The notes beneath the pieces are model-generated. The model was not told the DNA's origin, ran no database searches, and was given only the letters and a program-made list of their open reading frames with translations. Of a stretch of 64,000 bases of DNA, positions 6,467 through 38,201 are shown piece after piece. Position numbers and translations under genes: made by a program. Each line of letters opens with the position of its first letter. Within the stretch, counting starts at the first letter, position 1. The DNA comes from Escherichia phage JY01: the sequence record OR995200.1. One strand, written 5' to 3'.

Positions 6467-7874
<1,408 letters not shown>

Positions 7875-9309: not shown

Positions 9310-10897
<1,588 letters not shown>

Positions 10898-31767: not shown

Positions 31768-32424
31768 ATGTCAGCACCTAGAATATCATTTTCGCCCTCT
31801 GATATTCTATTTGGTGTTCTAGATCGCTTGTTCAAAGATAACGCTACCGGGAAAGTTCTTGCTTCCCGGATAGCTGTCGTAATTCTTTTGTTTATGATGG
31901 CGATTGTTTGGTATAGGGGAGATAGTTTCTTTGAGTACTATAAGCAATCAAAGTATGAAACATACAGTGAAATTATTGAAAAGGAAAGAAATGCACGCTT
32001 TGAATCTGTCGCCCTGGAACAACTCCAGATAGTTCATATATCATCTGAGGCAGACTTTAGTGCGGTGTATTCTTTCCGCCCTAAAAACTTAAACTATTTT
32101 GTTGATATTATAGCATATGAAGGAAAATTACCTTCAACAATAAGTGAAAAATCACTTGGAGGATATCCTGTTGATAAAACTATGGATGAATATGCAGTTC
32201 ATTTAAATGGACGTCATTATTATTCCAACTCAAAATTTGCTTTTTTACCAACTAAAAAGCCTACTCCCGAAATAAACTACATGTACAGTTGTCCATATTT
32301 TAATTTGGATAATATCTATGCTGGAACGATAACCATGTACTGGTATAGAAATGATCATATAAGTAATGACCGCCTTGAATCAATATGTGCTCAGGCGGCC
32401 AGAATATTAGGAAGGGCTAAATAA
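31768..32424 (+). CDS. t: holin T
   Basis: 218 aa; N-terminal TM segment (VVILLFMMAIVWY) and large periplasmic domain; matches T4 T as recalled. Confidence 0.95.
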   Translation: MSAPRISFSPSDILFGVLDRLFKDNATGKVLASRIAVVILLFMMAIVWYRGDSFFEYYKQSKYETYSEIIEKERNARFESVALEQLQIVHISSEADFSAVYSFRPKNLNYFVDIIAYEGKLPSTISEKSLGGYPVDKTMDEYAVHLNGRHYYSNSKFAFLPTKKPTPEINYMYSCPYFNLDNIYAGTITMYWYRNDHISNDRLESICAQAARILGRAK

Positions 32425-32697
32425 TTATTTGTTCGTATACATCTCTAGATATCGATATACACCCTCAAAACCCTCGTTGAATTCGTCGATGAGGGTTTTC
32501 TTATCTTCTTGAGTTAATTCAGAAACAATTTTACGGAATGAATTCTGATTTAATTTTCTACCTTCATGCGTTACTCCAATCTCATTCAGAAATGCAATAA
32601 AATTAGCACGATTTTCAACAATATCTTCTCTGGAAAATTTAATCAAAATAGACGCAACAGTAATAATTTCACGAACTGTATCAATGTTTTTATTCAT
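32425..32697 (-). CDS. asiA: anti-sigma70 factor AsiA
   Basis: 90 aa; sequence as recalled for T4 AsiA. Confidence 0.95.
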   Translation of the reverse strand: MNKNIDTVREIITVASILIKFSREDIVENRANFIAFLNEIGVTHEGRKLNQNSFRKIVSELTQEDKKTLIDEFNEGFEGVYRYLEMYTNK

Positions 32698-32709
32698 TAA
32701 CTATACCAC

Positions 32710-32862
32710 TCAATTAGTTGACTTTGTTATAATATCATCAGACGCTTGATTTGTAAACTGGTCTGTGTTATTTTCTTCAAAAATTTTTTCTACGAATTCC
32801 TTGAACGACTCGCGTTCCTGAGCTGCATTATGCTCGATTACCTTTTCAAGATTATGACTCAT
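32710..32862 (-). CDS. small acidic protein (asiA.1 position)
   Basis: 50-codon ORF missed by the 60-aa track cutoff; ATGA overlap with the upstream gene stop. Confidence 0.35.
   Translation of the reverse strand: MSHNLEKVIEHNAAQERESFKEFVEKIFEENNTDQFTNQASDDIITKSTN
32727..32759 (-). promoter_or_regulatory. early promoter upstream of asiA
   Basis: GTTTAC at 32754-32759 with a TATAAT-containing -10. Confidence 0.5.
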
Positions 32863-33137
32863 TCGAAATAATCTTCAATTTCGTAATCATGGACGTAAAT
32901 CATTATAGTTTTTAATACATCATCAATACTTTTTCCTGGAGCTGGAATTACGTAAAAATATCCTGCTTTTGAGAGGTCTTTATAAGTTCCAACCAAGAAA
33001 TCATTATTCTCGAGATGTAATTCTTCAACTAATTCATTAACAATTGAGTGGTATAAATTTGGTAGAAACTTATACAGCTTTTCTAGAATATCAATTTTGA
33101 TTGTGTATTGAACCACAGACTGAGAATCAATAATCAT
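32859..33137 (-). CDS. arn: Arn-like anti-restriction protein (DNA mimic, McrBC inhibitor)
   Basis: 92 aa, acidic; size and position between asiA and motA as T4 Arn. Confidence 0.6.
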   Translation of the reverse strand: MIIDSQSVVQYTIKIDILEKLYKFLPNLYHSIVNELVEELHLENNDFLVGTYKDLSKAGYFYVIPAPGKSIDDVLKTIMIYVHDYEIEDYFE

Positions 33138-33220
33138 AGACCTTCCCCTTATGTTTCTGTTTGCGATTAGATTCTTTAAACGCTTTCTTCTTATCCTTAT
33201 GAACAGAAGCTTTATTAAAA

Positions 33221-33439
33221 TTATGTTTTGCGACTAAATTGTTCATAATGCTGAATTACCTCTCTTAAACATTTGCATGTGAATGAGAACTTTTTAGCTA
33301 CACCACATTCAAATATATGTTCTCTTAAATCACGTGTATCAGTATATCCCATCTCAACAATAAAATGCCTTATTAGATTTTTATCTTTATCATTGAGAGA
33401 ATTAAAATAATCAGATTTTGAATTAATTTCCCTGGCCAA
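33221..33439 (-). CDS. hypothetical Cys-containing protein (arn.x)
   Basis: 72-aa ORF. Confidence 0.4.
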   Translation of the reverse strand: MAREINSKSDYFNSLNDKDKNLIRHFIVEMGYTDTRDLREHIFECGVAKKFSFTCKCLREVIQHYEQFSRKT

Positions 33440-33719
33440 ATTGAATCACCTTCAGTTGACGTTTTAATTCTTTTATCATTTCTTCGTTCATCGCAATATA
33501 AAGATCGCGTAAAGCAGGTTTTAGCATTCCATTTACCGGAGAACTAAATGGGCATACATAATCTTTTCCTACAAGCTTTTTGGTAAATTCCATATCACAA
33601 AATTTAAATGCTGGCTCATTCGCATAAATTCCCCAATTAGTTGACATCATTTTATTGGCATATTCCAGTGCCTGAATTTGATTCATAATTCCATCGATTT
33701 GAAACTTTTTAATATTCAT
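33423..33719 (-). CDS. hypothetical protein (arn.x)
   Basis: 98-aa ORF. Confidence 0.45.
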   Translation of the reverse strand: MNIKKFQIDGIMNQIQALEYANKMMSTNWGIYANEPAFKFCDMEFTKKLVGKDYVCPFSSPVNGMLKPALRDLYIAMNEEMIKELKRQLKVIQFGQGN

Positions 33720-34180
33720 TAGTAAAGGTCCTCAGAGTAAAGTTCTTTTTCACTACCACCACGTTCAATACGTACTTGTCCAGCGTAAGTTGCAATAATC
33801 ATTGCTTCTTCACGTGTCCAATAATTACTATATTGGTCAATAAACCCTTGGTCATCATCACAAACTTGTTGAGTAACTAATTGAGGTTTAACTACATCTA
33901 AAACTTCGGCCATATCTTTAGAATAATGACGAGCACCTGGAATAATAAGAGTTCGTCCATCTTTTAATTTAAAACGGTTGGCCGCGCAGACAATTCGTCG
34001 TTGATACTTTTGGTTTTCATCCCAATATGCAGTCTGCCAACATATTTCAGGAACTTCTTTTAGAATATCTTCTTCTGTGCATTTATAACCATGCGCTTTA
34101 AATTTTTCAGCAAGACTTTCTGGAGTTTCACGAGATAAAGGAACATTCAGCATTTTTAAACGATTGATAAATGGGTTCAT
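33719..34180 (-). CDS. hypothetical protein (arn.x)
   Basis: 153-aa ORF. Confidence 0.45.
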
Positions 34181-34506
34181 TTAAACCATCCTTTAATACG
34201 TTGCCACAAAGTTTTCTGTTGAGCTTTGTTAACACCAATTGAGCGAATAACTGGTTGAGATTCCTGGAATTCTTTATAATCGGCAAGGTAAATTTCGTAA
34301 GCTGCATCTGTAAAGGAACTTATCGCTGCCATGAAATTATTGCGAATACCTACTGGAGCATCTTTACTTTCACGAATAATCATGTATTTACCAGTCTTAA
34401 TCTTTACAATAGTTCCAAGATAAGCTCCATGGTACCAAATATCCCAACCCTCTTGAGTAGGTTCTGCACAACGACGAAGTTCATTGATAATTTCTAACTT
34501 GTTCAT
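34177..34506 (-). CDS. hypothetical protein (arn.x)
   Basis: 109-aa ORF. Confidence 0.45.
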
Positions 34507-34516
34507 TATTTATTCC

Positions 34517-35152
34517 TCACAGTTCAGATGCTACAGTGATTACTGCTTCAATGTTTTCTTCCGAGCGTTTAATGTCAAGATACACATTACCGTTTTTAGC
34601 GATTTTACATGACATTCCGATATCAGTAAATTTCTGAATATGATGTTCCATCATTTTGTATCCAAAAATTCGCATATTTCCATTGTTGTTAATTTCAAAA
34701 TTACGAATTCCGTGAGTGCGTTTTTCTAAAATAGCGAGATAGTTACTACGATAAGTTTCGACCTTTTTAAGAACAAATCCATTTTCATCTAAAAGTTTTA
34801 ACATGAGGTCTTTATCTTCTTCCATATCAGAAGTAATCTCACGAGCTTTACGAGTTGCTCGTTTTTTCAGTAGTTCCGGAGCATTTTCCTGTGCGTATAA
34901 AGTTGCTGCATTTGAAATAATATCCTGAGCTTCACCAGTAATGATTAATCCATCACCTGATTTCTCCACCAGGCCTTTTTTAATCAACACCCCAATATTA
35001 CTATTAACTACTGCGTTACCTAAATCTGGATGCACCTCACGAACTTCTGCAGCTGTAATGAAATCTTTCTTAGCAATAGTAATTAAAATCGCAGCAGTTT
35101 TTTCATTCAGAACATCGTTAGAAGCTTTGATGATGTAAGTTACTTTAGACAT
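34517..35152 (-). CDS. motA: MotA middle-transcription activator
   Basis: 211 aa; matches T4 MotA as recalled; early promoter module just upstream. Confidence 0.9.
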   Translation of the reverse strand: MSKVTYIIKASNDVLNEKTAAILITIAKKDFITAAEVREVHPDLGNAVVNSNIGVLIKKGLVEKSGDGLIITGEAQDIISNAATLYAQENAPELLKKRATRKAREITSDMEEDKDLMLKLLDENGFVLKKVETYRSNYLAILEKRTHGIRNFEINNNGNMRIFGYKMMEHHIQKFTDIGMSCKIAKNGNVYLDIKRSEENIEAVITVASEL

Positions 35153-35191
35153 TTTCTAATCTCCGTAATTCTGTATCAGTAGTTGATAGTT

Positions 35192-35223
35192 GTATAGTAC
35201 CACAGTATGCTTTGGTTGTAAAC
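35192..35223 (-). promoter_or_regulatory. early promoter upstream of motA
   Basis: GTTTAC at 35218-35223, -10 TATAGTACC, conserved leader. Confidence 0.55.
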
Positions 35224-35249
35224 CGTTTTGTGAAAAAAATTTTTGAAAT

Positions 35250-35276
35250 AAAAAAAGGGAGAGCCGAGGCTCTCCC
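35250..35276 (-). terminator. intrinsic terminator after gene 52 / motA.1
   Basis: Hairpin GGGAGAGCC-UCG-GCUCUCCC followed by UUUUUUU. Confidence 0.65.
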
Positions 35277-35282
35277 TAAAAA

Positions 35283-35432
35283 TTACTGCATGACTGTGAT
35301 AACTGTCATGATAACACGTTGAATGCCGAACGCAAGAAGACCTCCTGCTACGGCTGGAACAACACCTAAACCCGCCAGTAAAATGCTACCGGATACTAAT
35401 GCAGCGCTTGTAATACCTATGAATGGACTCAT
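35283..35432 (-). CDS. small hydrophobic membrane peptide
   Basis: 49-codon ORF (MSPFIGITSAALVSGSILLAGLG...); ATGA overlap with gene 52 stop; below track cutoff. Confidence 0.4.
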   Translation of the reverse strand: MSPFIGITSAALVSGSILLAGLGVVPAVAGGLLAFGIQRVIMTVITVMQ

Positions 35433-36757
35433 TTGATTTCCTCTAAATCTTTAGTGTATTCGGTAACTACATTAGTAGTTTTCCAATATTCGTTTTCTTC
35501 TTTCTTAGCTTTAGCTTCTTCAGCAAGTTTCTTTGCTTCGTCGGAAGTCATATGAAAAATATTCATTCCAACTAGTTTATCAACATAAGAAGAATACATA
35601 TCGATTTTCGAAAGTTCTTCGGTCAGTTCTTTGCGAGTTTTACCCTGCACAACGATTTCACCTGAAATTACTTTCTTAATGAAATGTGCCTTGGCAAAGG
35701 CTAAACGAAAAGCTGACTCAGTTTCTTTGATTTTGTTATCAATTCGTTTTTTGACATAAGTTTTACGAACTTCAACAAAGTCTTTAATTAAATCGACTAC
35801 GTTATCGTAAACTTGTAGTTTTCCTTTCTCATTAATAACCGTAATATTCTGAGAACGGCGCTCAATTAACCCAAAGTCTTTCATAATTTTTGCATGGCGT
35901 TCTTCTTCATTATCGCTCAAAGAATATTCTTTACGGAATTTAACTTTAAAGCCAAAACCATGCTCACCACAAGCATCATCCCATGTAATGAAGCCTTTAT
36001 CTTCAAGTGGGTCTAAGATTTTACTCACATAAGTTTCACGATCATACTTATACGGAATCTCAGTGATATGCATTTGAGTTCGTGAAGTAAACTTATATGT
36101 TCCACGAATTTCATATTGCCCATCAATCTCAACGACTTCACCACGAAATTCTGGGAATTCTACCTTCGGTTTAGTTACTTTCTTTCCTTGAAGAGCTTGT
36201 AATACAGCTTTCTTAACAGAAGAAACGCTATGAGGAAGAATGTAAGTTGCATAACCAGTTGCAATACCGGAAACGCCATTAAGAAGAACAGTAGGAATAA
36301 TAGGCAAATAGAAAGCAGGCGGAATGTGTTCTTTATCTTGATGTACCGGAGCATATTCAGTATCTTTATATACGTTATAGAAATTTTTACTTACACGAGC
36401 AAAAATATAACGACTTGCTGCTGCTTTTTGGACGGTACGAGAACCAAAGTTTCCTTGACCATCTAACAAAGGAAAGTTATTATTCCAAGTGTTAGCCATC
36501 AAAGCCCCCGCATCTTGTGCAGAGTTTTCACCATGATGATATCCAAGGTCAGCTACACCACCTGCAATAGAAGCAAGTTTGTGAAACTTATCTTTATTTC
36601 CTCGTGCTAAATCAAGGGCTCGAGCAATAACAAATCGTTGGACTGGCTTAAATCCGTCAATCATATTTGGAATGGCACGATTTTCAACCGTGTACATAGC
36701 ATAAGCCAATGCTTCATTATCAATGATACTTTTTAAATCGCGATTATTCAGTTGCAT
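35429..36757 (-). CDS. 52: DNA topoisomerase II medium subunit (GyrA-like)
   Basis: 442 aa, same size as T4 gp52; synteny motA-52-ac-stp-ndd. Confidence 0.9.
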   Translation of the reverse strand: MQLNNRDLKSIIDNEALAYAMYTVENRAIPNMIDGFKPVQRFVIARALDLARGNKDKFHKLASIAGGVADLGYHHGENSAQDAGALMANTWNNNFPLLDGQGNFGSRTVQKAAASRYIFARVSKNFYNVYKDTEYAPVHQDKEHIPPAFYLPIIPTVLLNGVSGIATGYATYILPHSVSSVKKAVLQALQGKKVTKPKVEFPEFRGEVVEIDGQYEIRGTYKFTSRTQMHITEIPYKYDRETYVSKILDPLEDKGFITWDDACGEHGFGFKVKFRKEYSLSDNEEERHAKIMKDFGLIERRSQNITVINEKGKLQVYDNVVDLIKDFVEVRKTYVKKRIDNKIKETESAFRLAFAKAHFIKKVISGEIVVQGKTRKELTEELSKIDMYSSYVDKLVGMNIFHMTSDEAKKLAEEAKAKKEENEYWKTTNVVTEYTKDLEEIK

Positions 36758-36761
36758 AAAT

Positions 36762-36902
36762 TTACCATACTAGTGAATGTAGTGCCATAATAACATCAGA
36801 AATGAAAAGCACGACTTGAATTAATCCGAACATTACTCCATAATATAGTGCTACTAATAAAGTAGCAAGGGCTAATGAATAGCCCAAGATTTTCTTAATC
36901 AT
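36762..36902 (-). CDS. small membrane peptide (52.1 position)
   Basis: 46-codon hydrophobic ORF; overlaps the next ORF by ATGATTAA. Confidence 0.35.
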   Translation of the reverse strand: MIKKILGYSLALATLLVALYYGVMFGLIQVVLFISDVIMALHSLVW

Positions 36903-37047
36903 TTTCATTTAATAGCCAAAACAATGATAAAATTGCTAATACGCCTTGAGCTGTTGCTTGTAAAAATACTGAAGTTTCTCCAGTTATTACTGTTCCGGCG
37001 AATAAAAAGGACCAGCAGAAAAAGGCTATACCATAAACAAATTTCAT
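36895..37047 (-). CDS. ac: Ac-like small membrane protein (acriflavine sensitivity)
   Basis: 50-codon hydrophobic ORF at the T4 ac position; assignment by position and size only. Confidence 0.45.
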   Translation of the reverse strand: MKFVYGIAFFCWSFLFAGTVITGETSVFLQATAQGVLAILSLFWLLNEND

Positions 37048-37054
37048 ATTTTCC

Positions 37055-37135
37055 TCACTGGCGTCCGAAGACGCCTTTAGTTTTAAAATTATTACGATAG
37101 AACTGCATCACATGTTCGTTATGGAAATTACTCAT
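37055..37135 (-). CDS. stp: Stp peptide (suppressor of three-prime phosphatase; modulates the host EcoprrI-PrrC system)
   Basis: 26-codon [29 protein letters not shown], as recalled for T4 Stp; start overlaps the ndd stop. Confidence 0.7.
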
Positions 37136-37593
37136 TAATATGCCTGCAAAACGAATTTAAAGTTATCAGCCAACATACGGTTCATTTCTTCAAGTGTTTG
37201 ATACTCAGAATGATGATTACGAGTAAACGCTAAAGCTAACTGTCCTTTTCCAAATCCCGTCGTCAGAGGTTTCATCTTAGAAGCAGGCAGATAAAACACT
37301 GTGTATGGAACATTGTTATTTGCAATAGTACGTGCAAGCTGAGACCGACGTTGACGAATATGACTTAGAACTGCACTGAATCCTTGCTTAGAACGCTGAT
37401 TACCTACATAAAATCGTGCTGACACACATGGATTACTAAATGGACGACCATCTAATTTACTTACTAAAAAGTAAAATCCAGGTTTAGATAAAATATCTTT
37501 ATGCGGAGTTCCCAAAAACCACTCACCACCCTTGATTGTACCAATAACAGTAGCACCTGCATCATTCAGATCAGTAACAGTCATATATTTCAT
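37135..37593 (-). CDS. ndd: Ndd nucleoid disruption protein
   Basis: 152 aa from [10 protein letters not shown], matching T4 Ndd as recalled; track ORF has a 26-codon extension. Confidence 0.85.
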
Positions 37594-37651
37594 ATTAATT
37601 TCCTCTAAATTATTTTCTACTCCAAGGCCGCATGAATACGCGGCCATTAAA

Positions 37652-37867
37652 TTAATCGTCGCAGTCGACACTCAATTCCCAAAACTCTTCTACGGTATAA
37701 GTTTCAGTATCATTTTCAATACAGAAACGTTCATTACTATTGTTTGCTAAAGTAGCGTTAACTGTCATTTTTTCGCTAGTGCTCTTAAGAGGTGAAATAC
37801 GAATTAACTGATCGCCGTTATCTAAACAAAAAATTTCACCAACTTTTAAATCTTTAAAGATTTTCAT
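37652..37867 (-). CDS. hypothetical protein (ndd.x)
   Basis: 71-aa ORF. Confidence 0.45.
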
Positions 37868-37982
37868 AATTCACCTCAAGGAGTATAAAATCCGAATGCA
37901 GTTGTTGACCATCCCATCCAATATGGAAAATTTGCACCAATGTAAAACATAAGAATATAAAACCAACCGCTCAACAAATTCA

Positions 37983-38201
37983 TCATTTTACACCATTCCA
38001 AATTGTTTCAACCACAGATTTTAAACCATTTTGATGAATATCAATTCCGACTACTGTCATCAAATAGATTCCAACTACAACTGAACCTAAGACAAAAATC
38101 AGCATAAAAATGAATAAAGCCGGAAAAATATTATCGAAAAACCATTCAATAAATGTAAAAGCACTGCGTTTACGCTTCATATTTTCCTCACATAAATCCA
38201 A
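37983..38201 (-). CDS. small membrane protein (ndd.x)
   Basis: 72 aa with a long hydrophobic segment (LFIFMLIFVLGSVVVGIYLM). Confidence 0.45.
   Translation of the reverse strand: MDLCEENMKRKRSAFTFIEWFFDNIFPALFIFMLIFVLGSVVVGIYLMTVVGIDIHQNGLKSVVETIWNGVK

Follow-up and report, generated by a model that had tools for sequence, protein, structure and literature searches.

Conserved short genes of the T4-like Escherichia phage JY01 between asiA and ndd, including stp and a divergent allele of ac

The circuit formed by the bacteriophage T4 peptide Stp, the restriction complex EcoprrI, the anticodon nuclease PrrC and the repair enzymes Pnk and Rnl1 has been textbook material since the 1990s. Stp acts on the type Ic restriction complex EcoprrI, as well as on EcoR124I, and thereby alleviates DNA restriction; where the host is prr+, this inhibition unmasks the latent PrrC anticodon nuclease, tRNA-Lys is cut, and the cut tRNA is healed by T4 Pnk (the pseT product) and sealed by Rnl1 (the rnlA product) (PMC3014915; bioRxiv 10.1101/2023.04.06.535777). 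The mutations through which stp was identified are suppressors of the pseT/rnlA defect on prr+ hosts (PMC3014915). Its neighbour ac is known from T4 genetics: the wild-type gene renders infection sensitive to acridines and its loss confers resistance, a phenotype established for the T4/T2-type allele only. Here, we describe a 64,000-nucleotide stretch of Escherichia phage JY01 (OR995200.1; hereafter, the window), which carries on its minus strand, between positions 32710 and 37135, five short open reading frames (ORFs) that an initial annotation had reported as missed by a gene track with a 60-codon cutoff. These ORFs are almost certainly real genes of a T4-like phage, expressed early and translated, as judged from sequence comparison, and are orthologues of stp, ac, 52.1, motA.1 and asiA.1:

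stp, 37055–37135, minus strand: 26-residue Stp peptide (ORF and T4 match; PF08133, phrog_6763)
ac, 36895–37047, minus strand: 50-residue predicted two-helix membrane protein (phrog_2501)
52.1, 36762–36902, minus strand: 46-residue hydrophobic membrane protein of the DUF7396 family (PF24129, phrog_3595)
motA.1, 35283–35432, minus strand: 49-residue glycine-rich hydrophobic peptide (phrog_3487)
asiA.1, 32710–32862, minus strand: 50-residue acidic soluble protein (phrog_3762)

The window comes from a T4-like phage (Tequatrovirus), as are Escherichia phages CAM-21 and vB_EcoM-G157lw, which are the best megablast matches of positions 32000–38000 (99.0% identity over the full length) among 945 phage records matched. 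Locally, the genes follow the T4 order: t, asiA, asiA.1, arn, arn.1–arn.4, motA, motA.1, 52, 52.1, ac, stp and ndd. Listing ORFs over positions 32000–38000 with the 20-codon minimum that had been proposed for gene calling recovered all five minus-strand ORFs at the coordinates listed above. Short ORFs are abundant in this stretch (it is overlapped by 86 ORFs with 20 or more residues, and 70 of these fall below 60 residues), so that length alone does not set the five apart from chance, and their support comes from conservation.

The five ORFs match annotated T4 genes one for one in order and coordinates, with 96–100% amino-acid identity in four of them, and each gives a full-length match in a PHROG profile search. 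The two identities proposed by the initial annotation hold in PHROG and Pfam searches and in alignments to T4: stp is stp, and the ‘ac-like' ORF occupies the ac slot; gene order and alignment to T4 identify the remaining three as 52.1, motA.1 and asiA.1. Stp is identical to its T4 counterpart (NP_049878) at 25 of 26 residues and 78 of 81 nucleotides, and matches the Pfam family ‘anticodon nuclease activator' over positions 1–26 of 26 (71.2 bits, cut-off 25, E=4e-20; phrog_6763, E=4e-20). The likeness extends to length, to the slot between ndd and ac, to a 1-nt overlap with ndd and to a hairpin at the 3′ end; the only amino-acid difference is L17F. The other three genes closest to T4 agree with it in length and position and show no material difference: 52.1 is identical at 45 of 46 residues (98%) and matches PF24129 over positions 1–46 of 46 (81.9 bits, cut-off 27), MotA.1 at 49 of 49 (100%; phrog_3487, E=2e-31) and AsiA.1 at 48 of 50 (96%; phrog_3762, E=3e-37).

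Conservation extends well beyond T4. The initial annotation had named absence of these frames from close relatives, despite nucleotide conservation, as the observation that would speak against them; instead, uninterrupted ORFs are found in 272–812 phage records each (tblastn against 50,697 phage records). Stp is at least 90% identical in 502 records, ac-type proteins occur in 272, 52.1 in 812 from Escherichia, Klebsiella and Enterobacter phages, motA.1 in 492 (all at least 80% identical) and asiA.1 in 484. In a set of 41 loci around gene 52 from IMG/VR and six GenBank loci, each ORF is intact in all Tequatrovirus loci that extend over its position, the other five frames being mostly interrupted in the same copies, and homologues of 52.1, ac, motA.1 and asiA.1 lie at equivalent positions in other genera. 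Those of motA.1 include 49-residue proteins from another group of loci (L015, L016, L018 and L047), and the MSHNLE N terminus of AsiA.1 is conserved in Dhakavirus, Mosigvirus and Klebsiella phages. The proportion of nonsynonymous differences (pN) is far below that of synonymous differences (pS) in all comparisons, and the corresponding rate ratio (dN/dS, Nei–Gojobori) is about 0.04–0.4 where dS is unsaturated: 0.04–0.29 for stp, 0.18–0.35 for ac (pN 0.30–0.51 against pS 0.66–0.80), 0.06–0.40 for 52.1 and about 0.07–0.43 for motA.1 and asiA.1 among close relatives, with synonymous sites saturated against other genera. All five ORFs are thus conserved orthologues under purifying selection.

The starts of the five genes fit a compact array. 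Overlaps of the ATGA type on the upstream stop, which the initial annotation had ascribed to most of them, are in fact found in two of the five: asiA.1 overlaps the stop codon of arn in this way, and motA.1 that of gene 52. The stp start overlaps the ndd stop by 1 nt (TAATG) and the 52.1 start lies inside ac with an 8-nt overlap. There is no overlap of ac on its upstream gene: 7 nt separate its start from the stp stop, and a GAGG Shine–Dalgarno sequence precedes it; motA.1 has, besides its ATGA overlap, a GAGG with the right spacing 7 nt upstream. Each of the five starts therefore has a Shine–Dalgarno sequence or an overlap with the upstream gene, and the five genes would be packed into minus-strand operons, with translation partly coupled to that of the gene upstream. 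For 52.1, an alternative in-frame ATG at 36908 would give 48 residues, and the start at 36902 (46 residues) is preferred since the MIKK/MKK position is where the homologues of other genera begin.

Several points weigh against reading the five ORFs as translated genes with the activities of their T4 counterparts. Translation of the five frames is argued from sequence comparison throughout; gene-name literature searches (asiA.1, motA.1, ndd.2a, arn.1) found no expression or function paper, and a search for ribosome profiling of small T4 proteins found nothing relevant. The sense-frame test is partly circular, as the homologues in the loci were collected as ORFs, a bias from which the tblastn counts are free. 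The L17F substitution of Stp falls within the 18 N-proximal residues that carry activity and are described as almost invariant (PMC3014915), a concern qualified by the 29 records (at least 99% identity) that have the identical Stp allele, which is a minority one. The window Ac is only ∼43% identical to T4 Ac, the protein used in all experiments. Finally, the roles of 52.1, motA.1 and asiA.1, presumed to be non-essential and host-modifying, are a matter of inference.

It is in ac that the window departs from T4. Nucleotide identity to T4 is 95–100% over ndd, stp, 52.1 and gene 52 and drops to about 50% exactly between 37047 (the ac start) and 36902 (the 52.1 start). The window Ac is identical to T4 Ac (NP_049877, acridine resistance/sensitivity, 51 residues) at 23 of 54 aligned positions, with ∼56% nucleotide identity, and the homology is weak (phmmer E∼5e-6). 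The two proteins share the slot between stp and 52.1, a length of about 50 residues, two hydrophobic segments (hydropathy) and an SV(F/I)xQAxAQG core, in the SVFxQAxAQG form in the T4 comparison; the window protein is thus a small membrane protein in the ac slot with detectable homology to T4 Ac, and it belongs to phrog_2501 (E=9e-23). The window allele is nearer to others than to that of T4, with 60% identity over 40 aligned residues to the Mosigvirus allele and 74–86% to other Tequatrovirus alleles (Shfl2 86%, RB68 76%), and the replacement is limited to the gene itself. At a threshold of at least 95% identity the window allele is found in only 15 phage records. Its core has the form TGETSV...QAxAQG, which is common across genera, and by this measure T4 Ac, which lacks the TGETSV motif, is the outlier. 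At least four classes of ac allele are present in T4-like phages.

Since synonymous sites are saturated between ac alleles and pN remains below pS, the replacement looks like an exchange of old alleles and not like rapid divergence. A tentative extension of this view, which we consider possible but would not favour, is that the ac slot acts as a gene-precise exchange cassette in which ancient, diverged alleles of a membrane protein of about 50 residues are swapped between near-identical T4-like genomes; its breakpoints may be the conserved GAGGAAAATATGAA leader on one side and the start codon of 52.1 on the other. A 2025 preprint proposes that Ac interferes with AcrAB–TolC efflux and reports high ac conservation from BLASTN matches of 93–100% identity; as the survey was limited to such matches, the high conservation concerns the T4-type allele only.

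An alternative that we regard as rather unlikely, yet the most serious of those considered, is that the window gene is a positional replacement with a role other than that of T4 Ac, that it confers no acridine sensitivity, and that the name ac is a misnomer; this would be compatible with the reading given above for the other four genes. The divergence of the allele between flanks that are 95–100% identical, its restriction to a few records and the T4-type scope of the reported conservation all lend it some weight, as does the fact that JS98-type phages have a different small membrane ORF again at the ac position. However, the agreement in length class, two-helix hydropathy and slot, the detectable homology to T4 Ac, the shared core and common PHROG, and the spread of the TGETSV-type sequence across genera with T4 as the outlier are better accounted for by a divergent Ac. 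By analogy, the window protein may then keep the acridine activity of T4 Ac, as a small two-helix inner-membrane protein that would make infected cells accumulate acridines.

The slots on either side of stp vary among relatives. In JS98, which has an stp annotated as orf257, a further stp copy lacks a start codon and is fused to a 21-residue fragment of 52.1 (L005 ∼6835–6962, minus strand), which looks like a recombination scar; the JS98 ac slot, after this second copy, holds an unannotated membrane ORF of 53 residues. An extra 57-residue membrane ORF (M..FVMGYL..ERLCKMCG.YE) lies between ndd and stp and overlaps the stp start in Shfl2-type and JS98-type phages (Shigella phage Shfl2, L052 147–320; JS98, L005 ∼7205–7371), and is absent from the window and from T4.

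The L17F allele would be expected to retain the activities of T4 Stp. Published loss-of-function mutations of Stp cluster at residues 4–14, and deletion of the eight C-terminal codons lowers activity only moderately (PMC3014915). Residues 1–16 and 18 of the window peptide, which cover this cluster, are identical to those of T4; a peptide of about 26 residues with the conserved N-proximal part is therefore present, with L17F as its only difference. A sequence search of the PDB with Stp, and another with AsiA.1, returned no solved relative.

The 3′ end of stp carries an additional feature, found by predicted folding and by a stem-loop scan:

hairpin of the C(UUCG)G type, 37060–37075, minus strand: GGCGUC-UUCG-GACGCC, in the 3′ end of stp

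The hairpin spans the codons G-V-F-G-R and ends 5 nt upstream of the ac Shine–Dalgarno sequence. It is kept in T4-like stp copies, two JS98-like copies having GGUGUC..GACGCC with one G–U pair. It may serve mRNA stability or the control of ac translation. An Rfam scan of the whole window (1–64000) gave no family at the gathering score, so that the hairpin is not a catalogued RNA family. Conservation of the interval as an RNA element at the ndd–ac junction, and not as a peptide, could be argued from this perfect hairpin within the last stp codons and from the modest cost of losing the eight C-terminal codons. This is nonetheless a very improbable account: variable columns in stp are concentrated at third codon positions (4, 4 and 15 at the first, second and third), 26-residue homologues with the same N-terminal motif and their own Shine–Dalgarno sequences but free of the hairpin occur in unrelated Kagunavirus, Tunavirus and Swiduovirus phages, and the peptide expressed from a plasmid is sufficient for both anti-restriction and PrrC activation (PMC3014915). 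We read the hairpin as an additional constraint superimposed on the 3′ end of a peptide-coding gene, and not as a substitute for the peptide. That the five ORFs are open merely by chance, in AT-rich stretches that separate real genes, and are untranslated is the least probable explanation and is effectively refuted already: a 26-codon frame is trivially expected among so many short ORFs and 7 of 10 distinct stp copies have an open antisense frame as well, but all five are named, annotated T4 genes (two of them with genetics) with curated family matches, in-frame conservation across genera and pN far below pS, and they occupy precisely the gaps left in an array of same-strand genes, their starts being coupled.

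The siphovirus homologues of Stp are 25–26 residues long (MSN[FW]HNEH[VI]MQ[FW]YR...), and are also found in many phages of Salmonella and Citrobacter; annotation is lacking for nearly all of them. Examples are:

L049, 2001–2078: Stp homologue of Raoultella phage RP180 (Kagunavirus), in which the hairpin is absent
L050, 2001–2081: Stp homologue of Tunavirus SA30RD
L051, 2001–2081: Stp homologue of Salmonella phage CF-SP1

These peptides were considered as a discovery and rejected as such, as their matches to phrog_6763 have E values between 2.5e-13 and 5e-20 and the peptide is already called ‘anticodon nuclease activator family protein' in one GenBank record.

The initial annotation had placed Stp, together with pseT and rnlA, in a counter-system to PrrC. 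Part of this holds, as both repair genes are intact in the window (tblastn with T4 PseT and RnlA):

pseT, 6656–7561, minus strand: polynucleotide kinase/3′-phosphatase, the tRNA-Lys healing enzyme
rnlA (gene 63), 9310–10434, minus strand: RNA ligase 1, the tRNA-Lys sealing enzyme

The pseT gene is an intact ORF of 301 residues (residues 1–301 covered, 89.7% amino-acid identity to T4), and the rnlA match covers T4 RnlA residues 1–374 (98.4% identity), with the T4-equivalent ATG at 10434 in an open frame of 9310–10470. Both enzymes of the T4 Pnk–Rnl1 pathway thus align end to end. Stp, in contrast, does not counteract PrrC but activates it (PMC3014915). Given that loss of stp function suppresses the pseT/rnlA defect, Stp is a trigger and an anti-restriction factor that acts upstream of the repair pair and outside it, and the grouping merged two layers, anti-restriction with its trigger effect on the one hand and tRNA repair on the other. 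In the phage studied here, Stp would bind to the type Ic restriction complex of its host (EcoprrI, EcoR124I) and so prevent DNA restriction; in prr+ hosts the same event would unmask PrrC and lead to cleavage of tRNA-Lys, which the window PseT and RnlA would heal and seal. The greater divergence of pseT from T4 (89.7%) than of its neighbour rnlA (98.4%) or of the studied region (95–100% in nucleotides) is a sign of mosaicism. By the Rfam scan, the group I introns that T4 has in td and nrdB appear to be absent from the window, and the distance from pseT to t, ∼1.1 kb shorter than in T4, fits this absence.

The remaining genes of the set are predicted to be small hydrophobic membrane peptides (52.1 and motA.1) and a small acidic cytoplasmic protein (asiA.1). 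The description of the 49-codon ORF as a membrane peptide agrees with its strong hydrophobicity (grand average of hydropathy 1.60, against 1.68 for 52.1), and that of the 50-codon ORF as acidic with a net charge of −6. In the host, AcrZ is a 49-residue partner of AcrB; mimicry of AcrZ by Ac or 52.1 was considered and dropped, as BLASTP with an AcrZ query gave no alignment at all. Directly 3′ of motA.1 lies a further element:

terminator-like hairpin, 35256–35277, minus strand: 9-bp stem with 6 GC pairs, followed by a T run

Terminator-like sites number 12 in the region, against 2.9 expected from shuffles. Given this strong hairpin directly after motA.1, ndd–stp–ac–52.1–52–motA.1 looks like one transcription unit, which the hairpin probably ends. 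A promoter-like site (TTTACA-17-TACTAT with TG, 35194–35222, minus strand) is located after the hairpin and upstream of motA, and the succession of the two suggests that motA.1 closes one transcription unit and motA opens another.

As a list of the short genes in the interval, the initial annotation was correct for its five entries and incomplete, since two more genes share the interval:

39-residue strongly basic ORF beginning MNNLVAKHNFNKASVHKDKKK, MNNLVAKHNFNKASVHKDKKKAFKESNRKQKHKGKVYDY, 33127–33246, minus strand: phrog_1359
arn.1, minus strand: 33221–33439 (72 residues, TTG at 33439) or 33221–33352 (43 residues, ATG at 33352, the T4 annotation)

The 39-residue ORF overlaps the 3′ end of arn.1 and the 5′ end of arn. 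It matches phrog_1359 over 39 of 39 positions (E=5e-23). With 1,196 phage records, some of them from phages of Klebsiella, Enterobacter, Cronobacter, Serratia and Aeromonas, it is the most widely conserved short gene of the interval; pN of 0.13–0.20 against pS of 0.68–1.05 indicates purifying selection. It is annotated in G157lw, JS98, APCEc01 and PG7, and the identical ORF of T4 is unannotated in NC_000866. For arn.1, the 72-residue form matches phrog_4452 over 72 of 72 positions, and the 29-codon N-terminal extension is as constrained (pN 0.17, pS 0.59) as the remainder (0.16, 0.53) in comparison with Mosigvirus APCEc01_044, which is ATG-initiated. Taken together, these two observations suggest that the real product is probably the 72-residue, TTG-initiated form and that the T4 annotation is truncated. 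In addition, arn.4 (34177–34506, minus strand) encodes 109 residues in the window, as in JS98 and APCEc01 (330 nt), and 68 residues in the T4 reference, whose copy looks truncated. None of the seven short proteins of the region is represented by an NCBIfam model.

The five ORFs are already catalogued T4 genes, and what they reveal is a gap in automatic gene calling and no discovery. That short genes escape annotation, as had been proposed, is borne out by G157lw, the closest annotated relative, which lacks stp and 52.1 features. An explicit stp feature is present in about 6 of 24 annotated T4-like records sampled, and 52.1 is unannotated in many records, where only ‘acridine resistance protein' is listed under the match. 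The 90-nt minimum gene length of common phage gene callers such as Prodigal would leave out the 81-nt stp by design. Relatives also carry wrong product names that stem from gene-name collisions: ‘naphthalene 1,2-dioxygenase' for ndd and ‘flagellar motor protein' for motA.

The understanding of T4 biology is left unchanged by these results, whose value lies in annotation. Where stp is unannotated, a peptide that is both an anti-restriction factor and a defence trigger drops out of inventories of defence and counter-defence. The allelic diversity of ac and the unannotated 39-residue gene bring minor corrections to the presumed conservation and to the annotation completeness of this T4 region. 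Should the ac slot indeed be an exchange cassette, Ac variants may match different host envelope or efflux targets, and the window allele may differ from T4 Ac in its behaviour towards acridines and other intercalators.

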